DNA of 64,000 bases, from assembly GCA_964567265.1 (NCBI GenBank), contig CAZMLK010000001.1, positions 395,723-459,722 on the forward strand, in the 5' to 3' direction. The position numbers and the translations under genes were made by a program. Under the pieces are notes generated by a model. It saw nothing but the letters and a program-made list of their open reading frames with translations. It was not told where the DNA came from and made no database searches. Source of the DNA: an uncultured Candidatus Saccharibacteria bacterium (GTDB lineage: Bacteria > Patescibacteriota > Minisyncoccia > Phycocordibacterales > UBA12088). Every line of letters starts with the position of its first letter. Position 1 is the stretch's first letter. Below are positions 28,975-34,620 of the stretch, piece by piece.

Positions 28975-29012
28975 AAACGGAAAAAGGCGGCCGCGCTTCG
29001 CGCGGCCGCCTT
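28975..29012 (-). terminator. Intrinsic terminator after the DPBB-repeat protein gene
   Basis: GGCGGCCGCGC-ttcg-GCGCGGCCGCC, with a T-run on the minus strand. Confidence 0.55.
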
Positions 29013-29022
29013 TCGCCTCCAC

Positions 29023-30603
29023 CTACATCGTTATCTGCACCGCATTCCCCGCCTGATCGTATCCATTCGCCTTGAAGTAACGGATCTCGTAGCTGCCGGG
29101 AGTGACATTCTGGAATGTGTAGGTGCCCGATGGGCCGGTCGCATACGACCATGCAAGATACGAGCGGTTGCCTGCCCCGGTCGCATAGAGCCCGATCCAG
29201 TCGGTCGTCGTGAACGCAGTACTTGGGCCCACCCAGCTCGCGATGATTGTATTTCCAGATCTCGATGCGGAGAGTGAATATCCGGCTGCGGCAGAAAGAT
29301 CAGCTCGTGCGACTGCCGCCTTCGCCTGTACGGTGATTTCCGGAGTAACTGCAACTGATGTGTATTTATTATTCTTCAGATACCGGATCTCGAAGGTGCC
29401 GGTGCGGTCGAGCGTGAATGTCATGTCGCCGCTCGCAGCATCCCCGGTGTATTTCCAGGTCCCGTAGCTCCGGTTCGACGCGCCCTTCTCATAGATCGCG
29501 ATCCAGTCCTGCGTATTCGACGAGCCTCCTGGCGTCTGCCAGTGCACGGTCACGGTATCACTAACTCGCGGGGTCTGAGAGGAAATCGTGAGCGAGTATC
29601 CGGCTGCCGCTGCAGCGGAGCCCAGTGTATAGGTCGCTGAGGTCGCACGCCGGGTGTAGCCGTTGTTCTCGAAGGTACGCGCCTCATATGCGCCGGGCTC
29701 GAGCGAGTCTGTATTGAAACTGAGCGTTCCCGAATTGCCGGATGGAAGATACTGCCACAGAAGATAGGAGGAATCAGCAGCGCCGACCGGATAGAGCCCG
29801 ACCCAATCCCGCGAACTGCGGCCGGTCGGCGCCTCGAACCGCACCGAGAGCGTATTCCCGGAAATGCCATTGATGGCGAGTGCGTAGTTCCCTACGGGTG
29901 CAGCCGCAGCGCTTCCGGTCGTACCGGTGGTTCCGTCTTCTGTTCCCGTCCCGCCACCACCAGTCACGATCTCGCGCCACGGACCGCTGGGCACATTGCC
30001 CGCGTCCACGAACCGCCAAGACACCAGCATCTGGTCGCCGCCGTTCAAGCAGTCGCGCATGGCGGGAGAGAGATCGATGCCGATTGATTGGCGCGGTCCC
30101 GCGCTTCCGAATACGTACGCAATATCATCCTCACCGTATGGTCCGACATCTTCCCACTGGCCGTAGCAGGTCGCACCGTTCGAGGTGACCGCCACCCAAT
30201 GATTCTTGAGCTGCGAAACGCTCTTGCTCGCGCCGGATTGATACCACGGGATCTGGCTCGCGTTCGATTTCTGGGATCCGTTATTGCCGATGTCGTTATA
30301 CGGAAGCGCGATATAGAACGGATTCTCCTTCGGAGTGAACGCGCACGGGCGGTAGCCGCATCGATTGTCGGGATCGTCTTCCCCGCCGTAATGAGTTGCC
30401 CAGAGCTCGTCCCATGCGCTCGGGACGTTCGAGATGAAGCCGTTGTCTGAGGTCGCGCCTTCGCCTACCCAGAAGACAGTCGCGTTGACCGTTTTCGGGT
30501 TCGTTTCGGTCGCGGTGATGGCTGCTGCCGGGTATGGATAGGCTGCTCCGAGTAGAAGGAGGAATACGGCTAGCGATGCGGCTCTAATGCCCTTCCGATT
30601 CAT
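29023..30603 (-). CDS. Secreted protein with an RlpA-like double-psi beta-barrel (DPBB) domain followed by three copies of the same ~90-aa repeat domain found in the 23325..25730 protein
   Basis: Signal peptide. VAVTSNGATCYGQWEDVGPYGEDD...IGIDLSPAMRDCL resembles the RlpA/expansin DPBB core (V.VTN..G..VVRINDRGPY...IDLS.AA). After a G/T linker come three repeats with DWVGLY, DWIAIY, and DWIGLY plus YEAR/YEIRY motifs. Confidence 0.7.
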   Translation of the reverse strand: MNRKGIRAASLAVFLLLLGAAYPYPAAAITATETNPKTVNATVFWVGEGATSDNGFISNVPSAWDELWATHYGGEDDPDNRCGYRPCAFTPKENPFYIALPYNDIGNNGSQKSNASQIPWYQSGASKSVSQLKNHWVAVTSNGATCYGQWEDVGPYGEDDIAYVFGSAGPRQSIGIDLSPAMRDCLNGGDQMLVSWRFVDAGNVPSGPWREIVTGGGGTGTEDGTTGTTGSAAAAPVGNYALAINGISGNTLSVRFEAPTGRSSRDWVGLYPVGAADSSYLLWQYLPSGNSGTLSFNTDSLEPGAYEARTFENNGYTRRATSATYTLGSAAAAAGYSLTISSQTPRVSDTVTVHWQTPGGSSNTQDWIAIYEKGASNRSYGTWKYTGDAASGDMTFTLDRTGTFEIRYLKNNKYTSVAVTPEITVQAKAAVARADLSAAAGYSLSASRSGNTIIASWVGPSTAFTTTDWIGLYATGAGNRSYLAWSYATGPSGTYTFQNVTPGSYEIRYFKANGYDQAGNAVQITM

Positions 30604-30674
30604 GAAGGGGTTACTTTACAATTTTTCGGGGGTGGGGGCAAGGGAGAAATACAAAATCACAGTACCTTGAAGCA

Positions 30675-31538
30675 TCACTGATTTCCAGCTTCAAGCTGTG
30701 GATCGAGATCGTCCATGATGTACCGCATGAATTGTTTTCCCAGTTCAGTGAGAACCTGTTGATCATCGTTGAATGGAGACTTGAGCGTCTTAGCTTGGGG
30801 ACCGGCTTTCTTTTTTGCGACTCTTCGTCGCCACTGCCCATCCGCATCCGATTCTCGAGGTTGGCGCATAACGTCAGCCATTTGGAGTTCGTGGAAAAGG
30901 AACTTGAACAAATCGGCCTTCGCCGAGTCATCCCTTGGTATCTCACCGAATATCTCCGTTGCGATATCGTAAGAAGATATACCCGGATTCTGGTACACCA
31001 GCCTGAGTATCTGGAAATGAAGCTCGTGGAATCGCTCCATAAATTCCACAAAGAGGCGGACCACATCGTCATCCACAACGCGCATGCCAGCGGCGTTAGT
31101 GATGAGTTTTCGCAAACTCTCCCTTTTCTCGGTGGTATCGGCGCCGTCCCAGACGCGGAAAGTCTTACGCACAAGATTCAGATATTCTGTCGACTCTATT
31201 CGCTCTTCCGTCTGAATTCCAAATATCTCCAAACGCTCAAAGACACGACGCATATCCGCTAGTAACTCGCGAAGCTTCAACTCGTGCTCTTGTACCCACA
31301 AGAAAAGGAGCTTGTTCGTTATGCCTTGCTCCTTCTCGGCTGATAGAGTGGCAGCAGCACTTAAGACGCTTCCAACCCACGGAATACCACTCAACGCCGC
31401 CATTGCAACGCGTCCGTATTTCTTCCAATTTCCACCCGTTAGTTGCTCAAGAATAGCCCGCTCTTTTTCATTCAATACAACTGCTTCGATGCGTTCCGGG
31501 AGTTTGTGGTCTGCCATGGGAATCAGTCTACTCCTCAT
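30675..31538 (-). CDS. Hypothetical protein, low-GC orphan next to tRNA-Glu
   Basis: 287-aa ORF (probable start MADHKL at 31517). GC is about 48-50%, against about 60% in the surrounding DNA. No recognisable domain. Confidence 0.45.
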   Translation of the reverse strand: MRSRLIPMADHKLPERIEAVVLNEKERAILEQLTGGNWKKYGRVAMAALSGIPWVGSVLSAAATLSAEKEQGITNKLLFLWVQEHELKLRELLADMRRVFERLEIFGIQTEERIESTEYLNLVRKTFRVWDGADTTEKRESLRKLITNAAGMRVVDDDVVRLFVEFMERFHELHFQILRLVYQNPGISSYDIATEIFGEIPRDDSAKADLFKFLFHELQMADVMRQPRESDADGQWRRRVAKKKAGPQAKTLKSPFNDDQQVLTELGKQFMRYIMDDLDPQLEAGNQ

Positions 31539-31758
31539 ATATTTATCAGCAAATTTCTCGTAACATGTAACGAAATATGATTTTGTGCCCCCGTCTAGCT
31601 TCAGTGTGGTCGTCGGTCCTTACAGGACCAGTATCCCGATTGGATTTTTTAGTGCGGCCATAAATGGCCGACAAAAAATGCTCAATCGGGCTTCGACTCC
31701 CGGACGAAGTCTCCCCCGGAGACTTCTTAGGGTCCCAACTTTCGCTACGCTCAATTTG

Positions 31759-31830
31759 TGACCCTACCGGGAGTCGAACCCGGCTTTAGAGCTTGAGAAG
31801 CTCTCGTCCTAACCGATAGACGATAGGGCC
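31759..31830 (-). tRNA. tRNA-Glu (anticodon CUC)
   Basis: Minus strand reads GGCCCTATCGTCTATCGGTTAGGACGAGAGCTTCTCAAGCTCTAAAGCCGGGTTCGACTCCCGGTAGGGTCA. It folds as a cloverleaf: 7-bp acceptor stem (one G-U pair), D-arm, anticodon stem AGAGC/GCTCT with loop TTCTCAA, and T-arm GCCGG-GTTCGACT-CCCGG. CCA is not encoded. Confidence 0.75.
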
Positions 31831-31902
31831 AATGTACACCGAAAGTACCACAGTTTCCCGATTTTAAAAAGGTGAGGCCGCCCAAGACATGGGCGGCCCA
31901 CT

Positions 31903-32205
31903 TCATTGCTTTGCTGGTTCGACAAGCTCAAGCGCGTCTGGGTGATACGTCTTATCTCGGCCTGACAAATGTACCTGTCCGCGCGCGTCTACCGACTTTA
32001 CCTGGTACTCCTCCCATCCGCGCGCATCTACCAGGCGGACGATATCTCCCTTCTTGAACGTAACCACGACCTTGTTGGCTTTTTGGCCGTCAGCACGCGT
32101 CCGCTGGCGTTTTCTTGTGTCGCGCAAAATGTCAGAGATCGTCTCATTAATGATTCTCTGATGTACCGCTCCTGGCCGCCGCCTGTCTCCGCTGGCGATG
32201 TCCAT
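31903..32205 (-). CDS. Small hypothetical protein (100 aa)
   Basis: ATG preceded by GGAGG. A TTGACA promoter-like motif in an AT-rich stretch lies upstream. No recognisable domain. Confidence 0.45.
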   Translation of the reverse strand: MDIASGDRRRPGAVHQRIINETISDILRDTRKRQRTRADGQKANKVVVTFKKGDIVRLVDARGWEEYQVKSVDARGQVHLSGRDKTYHPDALELVEPAKQ

Positions 32206-32265
32206 CGAACCTCCATTCGTTGATGCTTTCGATATTAAGATGCATATATTGAGATGTGTCAAATA

Positions 32266-32301
32266 TAAGACCCCCGCGCGCACCTCGGTGCGGCGGGGGT
32301 C
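32266..32301 (-). terminator. Terminator hairpin after the 32309..32635 gene
   Basis: GACCCCCGC...GCGGGGGTC compound hairpin followed by TCTTATATTT on the minus strand. Confidence 0.55.
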
Positions 32302-32308
32302 GGACGGC

Positions 32309-32635
32309 CTAGGCCATCTGCGGCCAGACGAGACCTCTCATGAGCGAGCTGAGATCAGGCGTCGGGACTAGTTGGGAGATGCTGTGGAGCAGGCGGCGTA
32401 CTTTCCGCCCGCCCCGGACAGCGTCAGTCTGGATCGGCGTGACGTGGGCCATTAGGAGGCCAGTCCCCGTAAGAAACACTCGGCAAATGCGCACTATGAT
32501 GCGTCGTTTGCCGTCGATCAGATATGCCGTAAGCGCGGCGCCGCTTTTCAGTTGCTCCTTGAAAAATCGAAGGAGCGGATTTGTTGCCCGAGCCCGGGTA
32601 CGGCGGCCGCTATTCGTGCAAATCTTCAACGTCAT
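32309..32635 (-). CDS. Small hypothetical protein (108 aa)
   Basis: ATG preceded by GGAGG with a 7-nt spacer. GC3 is about 70%, consistent with host codon usage. No recognisable domain. Confidence 0.5.
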   Translation of the reverse strand: MTLKICTNSGRRTRARATNPLLRFFKEQLKSGAALTAYLIDGKRRIIVRICRVFLTGTGLLMAHVTPIQTDAVRGGRKVRRLLHSISQLVPTPDLSSLMRGLVWPQMA

Positions 32636-32774
32636 CTACAAACCTCCGCTGGTTTCAGAGAACAAATGCCCTCCCTGGGCACCTGAAGATAGTACCGAAA
32701 AATTGACTTTTTGAAAAGGTGGGTTGAAAAATACCCGGGCGTGAGCCCGGGCATTGGTCGGATGAAAATTCTCT

Positions 32775-33185
32775 TCAGGCAGGCACGACGCCCGCGATTT
32801 CGAGGAAGCGCTCACGAAGCCACGCAGGCGGTCGTGGTGTTTCCTCGCTTCCATCTGCTGCAATGATCACGTGCTGGCAGTTTGTGTCCGACATACCGAG
32901 CACATGTTCCCCAAGCGAACGCGCATACGCATCCATATATTGTCTCACGTGTCTTGCAGCGTCGCGTCGCCTCCGCGTACTGAGCGAGAGCGCCTTCCGC
33001 CAGAGATGCGAGGGCTTGAACCAGTCGCGTGTTTCAACATACAGGCAGACAACCGAGATCGGGCAAATGCCGTCTCGGTAAGACGGAGGCACGAATCGTA
33101 GGTGCGTACCATGTATGAGAACGGGGGTATAGCTTCCGTTGCAGATTGCTGTTTTAAGCGTTGAAAGGAATGTTTCGATATCCAC
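32775..33185 (-). CDS. Small hypothetical protein (136 aa, GTG start)
   Basis: GTG start preceded by GGGGAG with a 9-nt spacer. It is the first gene downstream of the promoter at 33221..33249. Confidence 0.45.
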   Translation of the reverse strand: MDIETFLSTLKTAICNGSYTPVLIHGTHLRFVPPSYRDGICPISVVCLYVETRDWFKPSHLWRKALSLSTRRRRDAARHVRQYMDAYARSLGEHVLGMSDTNCQHVIIAADGSEETPRPPAWLRERFLEIAGVVPA

Positions 33186-33220
33186 GAGTCTTCACTCCCC
33201 TAGTACTATTGACTGGAAAT

Positions 33221-33249
33221 TTTATACATTACGGAAACATTAAAGTCAA
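33221..33249 (-). promoter_or_regulatory. Sigma70-like promoter (TTGACT-17 nt-TATAAA) immediately downstream of the murF stop
   Basis: Minus-strand reading TTGACTttaatgtttccgtaatgTATAAA. It would drive the 32775..33185 and 32309..32635 genes. Confidence 0.4.
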
Positions 33250-33253
33250 GTTC

Positions 33254-34546
33254 CTACCTCCGGAGCCACTCTGCGTCCTGGCGGGCGAGAAGCTCTTCCT
33301 TGATCTGCGGATTCGCCATGAACTGCTCGATACAGCGCTCCATGCGGATGGACTGCGAGCCTTTGACGAAAATGACATCCCCTTCCTCCATCATGGACTC
33401 GATCATCTGTCCTGCCTCTTCCGCATCCCTGCATTCGAAAATAGTCTTCTTCTTCATGCCGGCTGCGTGCGCGCTCTTGGCTGAGAAATGCGCCCGCACA
33501 CCGACGGTGAGGAGTATATCCGCGACTTCCGCGAGCTGCTTCCCCGCGATCTTATGCGCTTCGATCGAGTACGAGCCGAGCTCGAGCATGTCGCCGAAGG
33601 CGACGATAGTGCGCCGGTGCGTGGTGAGGCTCTTCAGCGTGGCGACCGCTTCTTCGACCGCAACCGGTGAGGCATTGTAGGAATCATCAACGATCATCGT
33701 CCCCTTCTCTCCCTTCAAAATGCGCATACGGCCCGGCGACGGGATATGGTTCTGGAACGCGTCGCGGAGTTCAGAAAGCGTGACGCCTTCGAGCGTTCCC
33801 ATCGCGGTCGCGGCAAGAAGCGGGTATGCATGCTGGGCGCCAAGAACGCCCGGCAGCGTGAAGTTCGCCGTTTCTCCCCCCGCGTTCACGATGAGCGTGA
33901 TGCCGGAGGTGAGGACATCATTGGTGAGCACGTTCTGGAGCCCGCGACCTTGTATTTCGGAGCCTTCGTGGAATCCATAGGTCACCATCCTTCCTTTCCA
34001 TCCTGCTGCACGCTTCAGGATGTTGTGATCGTCCTTGTTGATGATGAGCGTGCCGTTCTCGGTGAGCGCATGCACGATCTTGAAATCCTCGTCGTTGACG
34101 GCGTCTGGCGAATCGAAATATTCCACATGAACCGGCAGGTCAGGAAAGCGCGTGAGGATGACGGCATCCACAGAGAGCCACTTTGCGAGTGCTTCGATAT
34201 CGCCCGGATGATCCGAACCGACTTCGAGCACCAGCCATTCCGGATACTGCTCCTTCACGAAAATAAGCACGAGCCCCGCGACAATGTTCTTCGTCCACAG
34301 GAACGGATTGTTCCATGCATTCGGCCGCCCGAGGATGGTGAGCGGCACGCCGATCTCGCTGTTGAAGCTCTTCTGGCTTTTCCGCACGAAGTATTTCTCG
34401 GAAAGCGCGACATACACGGCGTCCTTGGTGGACGTCTTTCCGACACTGCCAGAAACCGCGACGATGCGCGGTTTGTATTTCTTAAGGATCAGCCTGGCTT
34501 CGAAGGTCAGTATTGCAACCAGGATGCTGCGAAGAATGTGTTTCAT
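33254..34546 (-). CDS. murF: UDP-N-acetylmuramoyl-tripeptide--D-alanyl-D-alanine ligase
   Basis: GSVGKTSTK P-loop, Mur ligase middle and C-terminal domains. Last gene of the dcw cluster. Confidence 0.85.
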   Translation of the reverse strand: MKHILRSILVAILTFEARLILKKYKPRIVAVSGSVGKTSTKDAVYVALSEKYFVRKSQKSFNSEIGVPLTILGRPNAWNNPFLWTKNIVAGLVLIFVKEQYPEWLVLEVGSDHPGDIEALAKWLSVDAVILTRFPDLPVHVEYFDSPDAVNDEDFKIVHALTENGTLIINKDDHNILKRAAGWKGRMVTYGFHEGSEIQGRGLQNVLTNDVLTSGITLIVNAGGETANFTLPGVLGAQHAYPLLAATAMGTLEGVTLSELRDAFQNHIPSPGRMRILKGEKGTMIVDDSYNASPVAVEEAVATLKSLTTHRRTIVAFGDMLELGSYSIEAHKIAGKQLAEVADILLTVGVRAHFSAKSAHAAGMKKKTIFECRDAEEAGQMIESMMEEGDVIFVKGSQSIRMERCIEQFMANPQIKEELLARQDAEWLRR

Positions 34547-34620
34547 TGTCGAGGAAGCTTAGCATCGGCCGGCAGATCGAAAGCCAGGGCGACGAAGCTT
34601 GGATGGAAGAGTTCAGCTGC

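Follow-up and report, generated by a model that had tools for sequence, protein, structure and literature searches.

A probable mosaic of strain-variable genes at the murF–tRNA-Glu(CUC) junction of a patescibacterial genome

A 64,000-nucleotide stretch of DNA (hereafter 'the window') from an uncultured Candidatus Saccharibacteria bacterium (assembly GCA_964567265.1, contig CAZMLK010000001.1, positions 395,723 to 459,722 of the forward strand) was analysed around the interval between murF, the last gene of a division and cell wall (dcw) cluster with the order mraZ-mraW-ftsL-ftsI-murF, and a gene for a surface protein with SKICH-like repeats. Coordinates are those of the window unless a numbered locus from another genome (L001 and so on) is named, and every feature of the interval is on the minus strand (Table 1). 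In the direction of transcription, murF is followed by three small open reading frames (ORFs; orf136, orf108 and orf100), by tRNA-Glu(CUC), by a spacer of about 200 nucleotides holding a folded element (type A), and by orf287. An earlier note made from the sequence alone (the original prediction) had listed murF, a TTGACT-17-TATAAA promoter, ORFs of 136, 108 and 100 amino acids, the tRNA gene and the spacer, all of which were confirmed in place, and had read the interval as a tRNA-associated island of four ORFan genes and as a plausible undescribed defence, toxin-antitoxin or anti-defence system.

The promoter of orf136 is the sole match to TTGACW-N16-18-TAWAAW in the 64 kb (0.03 expected). 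Upstream of orf100, the predicted TTGACA hexamer and GGAGG ribosome-binding site (RBS) are both present, with the best -10 hexamer (TAATAT) at a spacing of 19 nt rather than 17. Whereas orf136 and orf108 had been described as a unit ending in one hairpin, each of the small ORFs is followed by its own strong, U-tailed hairpin, so that they make up three separate expression units and not an operon. At the orf136 hairpin, Rfam returned one weak match only, to the terminator part of a leader model. The GC content of orf287 is 0.497, compared with about 0.56-0.57 in neighbouring genes, its GC content at third codon positions is 0.53, compared with 0.72 in core genes, and codon-usage scores are close to 0 for orf136, orf108, orf100 and orf287, compared with 0.2-0.45 in core genes; the four ORFs have atypical codon usage and a foreign composition. 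As had been predicted, none of the four proteins could be assigned to a family in Pfam, NCBIfam, PHROGs or PADLOC (no significant match to PADLOC-DB v2 for any of them).

By the relatives of its MurF, the window belongs to the Patescibacteria/Paceibacteria. In the closest genome found (L001, MurF 68% identical), tRNA-Glu(CUC) starts 83 bp past murF, and a wall-protein gene with SKICH repeats lies about 250 bp past the tRNA. A co-directional murF and tRNA-Glu separated by less than 200 bp were also present in about 20 further Paceibacteria loci, which answers in the affirmative the question, raised with the original prediction, of whether murF is directly followed by tRNA-Glu elsewhere. In 13 more loci the gap measures 360-2550 bp and holds unrelated genes (for example, a protein of about 400 amino acids, a PaaX-like protein, and small ORFs), and orf136, orf108, orf100 and orf287 were found in none of the 80 loci. 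It follows that the junction is ancestral, with recurrent invasion of the slot, and as L001 and some 20 other Paceibacteria have murF immediately before the tRNA gene, the content of the interval is accessory. In two Paceibacteria distant from each other, L058 (11415-11738) and L027 (11319-11585), the gap holds small genes of 107 and 88 amino acids that are homologues (alignment z 7.6). Kinship of orf100 with these two was rejected (z 0.9 and about 0), the SH3-like C-terminal pattern being shared in look. The gap of L066 (11456-12643), L068 (7425-8633) and L074 (5005-6246) is occupied by a conserved protein of about 400 amino acids that matches nothing in Pfam and bears the motif HxHPHxDE in its N-terminal part.

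Contigs of sister strains were found through the MurF 90% cluster: L087, L088 and L089, with about 92% nucleotide identity in the flanks, and L090, with 97%. Breakpoints were derived from blastn and from the junction sequences. A first variable segment (A) spans the promoter, orf136 and the greater part of its terminator. L087, L088 and L089 have 34 bp in its place; it is kept in L090, and was not found elsewhere beyond the window and L090. The adjoining block (32730-31755), with orf108, orf100 and the tRNA, is conserved at 93% between the window and L087, L088 and L089, and the sequence of tRNA-Glu(CUC) is the same in the window and the sister strain. A second variable segment (B), with the type A element and orf287, is likewise replaced in these sister strains, in L087 by 920 unrelated bp that hold a different type of element and an ORF for a membrane protein of 160 amino acids; identity ends at the last bases of the tRNA and returns about 40 bp before the wall-protein gene. 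Within 2.6 kb there are thus three independent polymorphisms, in pieces that vary separately between strains: the orf136 cassette is there or not, orf108 and orf100 are retained but diverge quickly, and segment B is exchanged as a whole. On these alignments, the element together with its cargo is the unit that differs between strains, with its junction at the tRNA end. None of orf136, orf108 or orf100 was found in other fetched loci outside those of the sister strains.

As in genomic islands, presence varies among close relatives and composition is atypical. The interval is probably a mosaic, strain-variable accessory slot on an ancestral murF to tRNA-Glu(CUC) junction and not a single system. 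That one novel system of four genes, for defence, toxin-antitoxin or anti-defence, became integrated at tRNA-Glu is very improbable: although the genes are small, carry strong expression signals, lie beside a tRNA, are atypical in composition and belong to no known family, and although relatives of orf287 occur in defence islands, the four vary independently in close strains with promoters and terminators of their own, three of them lie on the 5' side of the tRNA, none matches PADLOC, and hundreds of orf287 homologues never occur with the small ORFs. L087, which has kept orf108 and orf100 without orf136 or orf287, largely refutes such a system. Nor does the label of a four-ORFan island hold, orf287 not being an ORFan and the spacer being a conserved tRNA-linked element rather than cargo. 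No type II toxin-antitoxin module was found either, as strong terminators part all the small genes and Pfam, NCBIfam and PADLOC gave no match.

Table 1. Features of the interval between murF and the surface-protein gene, in window coordinates
Feature	Coordinates	Strand	Remarks
murF	33254-34546	-	Mur_ligase_M and Mur_ligase_C; last dcw gene; ancestral left neighbour of tRNA-Glu
Variable segment A	32731-33265	-	Promoter, orf136 and most of terminator; 34 bp instead in L087, L088, L089
Sigma-70-like near-consensus promoter	33221-33249	-	TTGACT-17-TATAAA
orf136	32775-33185	-	136 aa, GTG start, GGGGAG 8 nt upstream, isoelectric point (pI) 8.8
Terminator-like hairpin 3' of orf136	32724-32759	-	CCCGGGC-UCAC-GCCCGGG and U run; -21.6 kcal/mol, z -5.4
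orf108	32309-32635	-	108 aa, GGAGG, pI 11.9
Terminator-like hairpin 3' of orf108	32262-32301	-	Abuts TTGACA hexamer (32257-32262); -31.1 kcal/mol, z -4.5
orf100	31903-32205	-	100 aa, GGAGG, pI 10.0
Intrinsic terminator 3' of orf100	31865-31899	-	Terminator scan; -24.8 kcal/mol, z -4.9
tRNA-Glu(CUC)	31758-31830	-	ARAGORN; Rfam 56.9 bits; ancestral locus anchor
Variable segment B	30645-31754	-	Type A element and orf287; 920 unrelated bp instead in L087
Type A structured element	31581-31740	-	Within the ~200-nt spacer 3' of tRNA-Glu
orf287	30675-31538 (287 aa); 30675-31517 (probable 280 aa)	-	3' of tRNA-Glu
Short inverted repeat	30651-30668, mate 31569-31586		18 nt, 78% complementary; brackets orf287
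Surface protein, 526 aa	29023-30603	-	SKICH-like repeats; next gene after orf287

Two of the small ORFs show signs of coding. orf108 is intact in L087, L088 and L089 (89.8% amino-acid identity; ratio of nonsynonymous to synonymous substitutions (dN/dS) 0.42) and orf100 in L087 and L089 (88% and 0.28, respectively), while in the same comparison dN/dS was 0.02-0.08 in ftsI, murF, ftsL and the wall proteins (0.03 for MurF against the sister strain). Differences at codon positions 1, 2 and 3 number 5, 4 and 11 in orf108 and 7, 5 and 15 in orf100, that is, 26 of 47 fall on the third position, and the indels of the conserved block all lie in spacers, with none inside either ORF. Both are called as genes in the source genome, and each forms a singleton cluster among about 15 billion proteins. 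An AlphaFold 2 (AF2) model of orf108 was uninformative (predicted local distance difference test (pLDDT) 43.6). orf100 has a basic N-terminal tail, its C-terminal half is SH3-like, and its residues 30-80 are weakly similar to bacterial SH3_3 repeats, which were its sole remote matches; a search against representative sequences likewise returned orf100 itself and weak SH3-repeat matches only. From these comparisons it is concluded that orf108 and orf100 probably encode real, weakly constrained, very basic small proteins that appear restricted to a species-level lineage. For orf136, a deep protein search gave no homologue, and the ORF is absent from the called protein set of the source genome, in which orf108, orf100, orf287 and MurF are present; its codon score is the lowest (-0.08), and its dN/dS of 0.66 against L090 rests on 9 changes only. 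orf136 would thus be a doubtful gene or a very young ORF. Scans of viral contigs for orf136, orf108 and orf100 gave no match.

Were the small ORFs chance frames, the gap between murF and the tRNA would be expanded non-coding DNA with promoters and terminators, or would encode small RNAs. The state of orf136 (no homologue, uncalled, poorest codon score, high dN/dS), the near-zero codon scores of all three, the low pLDDT of orf108, and a divergence that is fairly uniform with low synonymous divergence (dS) would all fit, but orf108 and orf100 have stayed intact over 6-9% divergence, with indels outside them only, an excess of third-position changes, dN/dS below 1 and good, correctly spaced RBSs, and orf100 has an SH3-like sequence pattern; this explanation is judged improbable. 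Between the window (31903-32635) and L087 (9411-10142), synonymous divergence is 0.11 in orf108 and 0.22 in orf100, two to four times below the 0.34-0.50 of the flanking murF, ftsI and wall-protein genes, and the 103-nt stretch between orf108 and orf100 differs from the sister strain at 2 positions only. By themselves, the three small ORFs are of minor interest.

The spacer behind the tRNA, described in the original prediction as rich in hairpins, does fold far better than shuffled sequences (z -4.8), and is homologous along its length to the sequence after the tRNA-Glu of L001. At its left end, the type A element carries the tRNA 3' end in reverse complement, with a hairpin set into it; at its right end, the tRNA sequence from T-loop to trailer is repeated in direct orientation, so that the outer arms form an inverted duplication of the tRNA-Glu 3' end. 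The direct copy on the right is perfect over 12-25 nt in L005, L009 and L076, and degenerate in the window. Two hairpins make up the interior, one with UGUAA as its conserved loop and the other long and free (variable) in sequence. With a covariance model (R1) built from three copies, the window scored 44.7 bits (E about 1e-8 to 1e-10), compared with at most 6 bits in a sister strain without type A. The window and at least 11 other loci carry the element on the strand of tRNA-Glu(CUC), 20-40 nt behind the tRNA, whether the tRNA is near murF or not; R1 also matches at four contig ends. No type A element was found in 636 kb of orf287-family loci, nor, by a pattern scan, in viral contigs. Tandem second copies are present in L024 (17378-17519 and 18109-18252), L009 (9263-9447 and 10332-10425) and L059 (5702-5826 and 5858-5984); small unannotated ORFs lie between the copies in L024 (121 amino acids) and L009 (107 amino acids), and in L059 a terminator hairpin parts the two adjacent copies, as after the tRNA itself.

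Over ten copies, 89.6% of cells were base-paired, compared with 71.7% in shuffles, and 32 of 51 pairs showed compensatory changes on both sides, compared with 18.1 in shuffles (none of 500 shuffles as high); the covariation score was 0.446, compared with 0.163 in shuffles and at most 0.10 in slid controls, for an alignment that was fitted to the model and so flatters the result somewhat. MAFFT and RNAalifold on six copies recovered one helix only, and the covariance-model route was used instead. The fold of the tRNA strand was the more stable in 6 of 6 copies. In the window and nine related loci, Rfam identified the tRNA alone, at gathering as well as permissive thresholds, and gave no match for type A or for the sister-strain variant. 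An intron-bearing tRNA on the opposite strand, or a tmRNA, was rejected, as ARAGORN found none with introns allowed. Behind the tRNA-Glu of L087 (10292-10470), L055, L067, L048, L002 and L030, the place of type A is taken by another conserved element that looks different (type B) and that shows blocks such as GUCACUAAG, CGCGACCCCGCCUCG and CUCCGGC when read against the tRNA strand. The type B elements of L067 and L048 have the outer helix GGGGAAUCG/UUCGAUUCCCC in common with type A. Strains that are 92% identical carry different element types. Taken together, the alignments point to a conserved structured RNA or single-stranded DNA element that is linked to tRNA-Glu and without an Rfam entry.

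One possible, if doubtful, explanation is that the element is a functional non-coding RNA, derived from the tRNA trailer, that mimics or sequesters the 3' half of tRNA-Glu and has no role in gene exchange, the strain differences being due to homologous recombination. The covariation is strong in helices unrelated to the tRNA sequence, the tRNA strand gives the stabler fold in all six genomes, the element is always found on the strand of the tRNA and 20-40 nt behind it, and L001 has the element without a cargo gene behind it, all of which would suit such an RNA. It is harder to reconcile with the terminator hairpin that stands between tRNA and element in several genomes, with tandem copies that have small ORFs in between, with two alternative interiors swapped between 92%-identical strains at a junction exactly at the tRNA end, and with arms that copy the tRNA end as att sites do.

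orf287 had been taken for an orphan gene of low GC content; the composition is as described, but the gene is no orphan. At least 212 homologous clusters were found (40-80% identity, about 280-300 amino acids, none with a Pfam domain), and all homologues, as well as the database copy from the source genome (P0001), begin at the position corresponding to 31517 (Met8), the probable start, which gives 280 rather than 287 amino acids. Hosts include Paceibacterota, Wolfebacteria, Acidobacteriia and Baltobacteraceae; a metagenome scan located the family in at least 449 loci, and one IMG/VR contig carries it. A tblastn search against plasmid and phage collections gave no match, and a literature search on locus tags of family members found nothing. 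In the family alignment (A1), many polar residues are invariant, as is a hydrophobic stretch (AAL..PWVG). The AF2 model (pLDDT 78) shows an N-terminal domain that is all-alpha and includes a conserved pair of hydrophobic helices, followed by a C-terminal winged helix; fold and profile neighbours cover the winged helix only (MarR/PadR and histone H1/H5, E 0.01-0.3). Membership in Abi_alpha (PF14337) was rejected, with an hhalign probability of 2% against one member and none of 31 family members matching the Pfam model at E<=10.

The neighbours of orf287-family genes vary by locus, and the gene is usually solitary among defence and mobile-element genes. The 144 proteins within 2.5 kb of homologues included TIR_2 (3), KwaB (2), Abi_alpha (2), DNA methylases (2), resolvase (2) and AAA_21 (2), with further matches to DUF6119, Beta_protein, Prim-Pol and AbiGi, and the copy in Acidobacteriia occurs with an integrase adjoining tRNA-Ala. 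A tRNA lies within 3 kb of the homologue in about 12 of 87 loci. The family thus appears, on its gene neighbourhoods, to be a solitary cargo of defence and mobile islands in several phyla, and from gene context only, a role in defence or mobile-element regulation may be inferred. The predicted defence or toxin-antitoxin cargo holds in so far as the orf287 family lies amid defence and mobile genes, in several loci beside tRNAs, although no known defence or toxin-antitoxin family is present in the interval; orf287 is the only one of the four genes with a defence-island pedigree.

The sole recurrent partner of the family is an adjacent, co-oriented gene for about 200 amino acids (9 of 78 loci), which matches positions 1-200 of the 410 of the PADLOC candidate PDC-S54 (E 1e-31 to 1e-40); no such gene is present in the window. 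Partner loci include L108 (7289-7894), L104 (4828-5445), L107 (3905-4513), L170 (1111-1716) and L122 (7342-7929), among others. The PDC-S54-like gene and its orf287-like neighbour may constitute a variant of two genes, with the product of the latter in place of the C-terminal half that the former lacks. L092 (6921-7103) and L096 (4476-4658) have, about 90 nt behind tRNA-Gln, a direct copy (18/20) of the 3' end of that tRNA and then PDC-S54-like and orf287-like genes, in the same layout as in the window but at another tRNA. The closest relatives of orf287 (80% identical) lie in other genomic contexts. Upstream of these relatives (L172, 423-1511) lies a co-oriented gene for a protein of 362 amino acids with no Pfam match, a coiled-coil-like N-terminus and two hydrophobic helices, which could be a membrane effector. 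On the other flank of orf287 in the window, the gene for the 526-amino-acid surface protein is built with a unit of about 300 bp that occurs three times (63-74% DNA identity) and matches the SKICH domain weakly; the counterpart of this protein in L001 has 729 amino acids and the same repeats.

Several known systems resemble parts of the locus. Integrative elements that target tRNA genes, among them those behind the tycheposon islands of Prochlorococcus, leave partial-tRNA scars and stacked insertions (bioRxiv 10.1101/2020.12.28.424599). Like such islands, the locus is a variable stretch beside a tRNA gene of a streamlined genome, with part of the tRNA 3' end copied, with insertions in tandem or in succession, and with small cargo genes that act in defence or have no known function, and it varies between very close strains. 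It differs in having no integrase, replication or excision genes, in a tRNA-end copy that is degenerate and not at the distal end of the cargo, in the position of three of its four genes at the 5' side of the tRNA, and in a repeat-bearing element with conserved, covarying structure. With integron cassettes and attC sites it has in common small self-contained or promoter-poor genes beside an imperfect palindrome of conserved structure and variable sequence, and arrays with the element between cassettes (L024, L009). An integron cassette array was nevertheless not identified in the window, which has no IntI integrase and no attI, and in which the arms of the element (TTGTGACCC/GGGTCACAA) are copies of the tRNA-Glu end and not RYYYAAC/GTTRRRY cores; integrons are not known from this lineage.

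PDC systems are defence candidates only and have not been validated; the likeness lies in the partner that adjoins orf287 homologues on the same strand, whereas orf287 itself matches neither PDC-S54 nor any other PADLOC model. Residues ~165-250 of orf287 are a predicted winged helix like that of MarR/PadR proteins (best Foldseek matches MexR, PadR and LmrR; weak profile matches to HTH_24 and histone H1/H5), but at the E values given above, with about 160 extra N-terminal residues unmatched and with invariant residues (H78, R106, D124, D150, R154, E165 and H167) outside the winged helix. Like tRNA-like RNAs (the tRNA-like domain of tmRNA, the Y-RNA-like YrlA of bacteria, and viral tRNA-like structures), the element has end helices that reproduce the acceptor 3' strand and T-loop sequence, and an outer helix enclosing further helices; unlike them, it gives no tRNA or tmRNA in ARAGORN and no match in Rfam, and its T-loop copy pairs with a complement and forms no T-arm.

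The following course of events would account for the mosaic slot. Three self-contained mini-cassettes, made up of RBS, ORF and a terminator each, would have accumulated between murF and the tRNA; that of orf136, with its strong promoter, is present in some strains and absent from others, and its coding status is doubtful. Immediately behind the tRNA comes an ancestral folded element of about 160 nt, with the tRNA 3' end in inverted duplicate at its two ends, and behind it orf287 as one cargo gene from a family that travels solitary through defence and mobile islands. Cassettes on the 3' side of the tRNA may have been swapped by recombination at copies of the tRNA 3' end, with a recombinase presumably encoded elsewhere, and the orf287 product may be a DNA-binding accessory protein, most plausibly in defence or mobile-element control.

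The tRNA-integration island of the original prediction is borne out in its accessory nature, atypical composition and strain variability, and not in its mechanism, there being no integrase and no clean att repeats. Only orf287 is on the 3' side of the tRNA, with orf136, orf108 and orf100 between murF and the tRNA 5' end, which is not the side where integration classically takes place. A jackhmmer search of the window seeded with one integrase, a weak test, found none, and within 29000-34600 no direct repeat of the tRNA 3' end was found at a far border that could represent attL/attR. Several further points weigh against the mosaic slot with cassette exchange. In the sister-strain locus, called genes and Pfam revealed no recombinase or integrase for about 8 kb in both directions. 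The direct copy that the window has of the tRNA end is degenerate (8/11) and lies at about 31590, before orf287 and not after it, and the sole distal repeat is the short inverted match at 30651-30668; its core (ACAAAATCA) resembles the tRNA trailer, possibly by chance, and it sits at the right breakpoint of segment B. Homologous recombination between the conserved flanks could explain the strain differences without a site-specific step. The dS of orf108 and orf100 (0.11 and 0.22) is lower than that of the flanks (0.48), possibly through recent strain-to-strain exchange or constraint at the nucleotide level, and orf108 may still have distant homologues. Finally, no homology or experiment ties the orf287 family to defence, the association being qualitative and without a matched control.

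A bolder form of the exchange reading, in which the element would represent folded recombination sites of a new class, or else an RNA that guides recombination, and would mark an integron- or tycheposon-like site of cassette exchange in Paceibacteria, with the recombinase elsewhere and with orf287 and the 160-amino-acid gene as swappable cargo, is considered unlikely. A function as a transcribed RNA is as possible for the element as one as a recombination site.

Little is known of how the almost uncultured bacteria of the Candidate Phyla Radiation, with their tiny genomes, exchange genes and defend themselves against phages. The tRNA-Glu junction beside the cell-division cluster is a hot spot for the gain, loss and swap of small genes, seen here at the resolution of single strains. 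It yields two uncatalogued objects that can be tested, the orf287 family, with its at least 449 environmental loci, and the covarying element that mirrors tRNA-Glu. Should the element prove to be the exchange site, a major uncultured lineage would have a new mechanism of gene capture; should it prove to be an RNA, it would represent a new class of tRNA-linked non-coding RNA.

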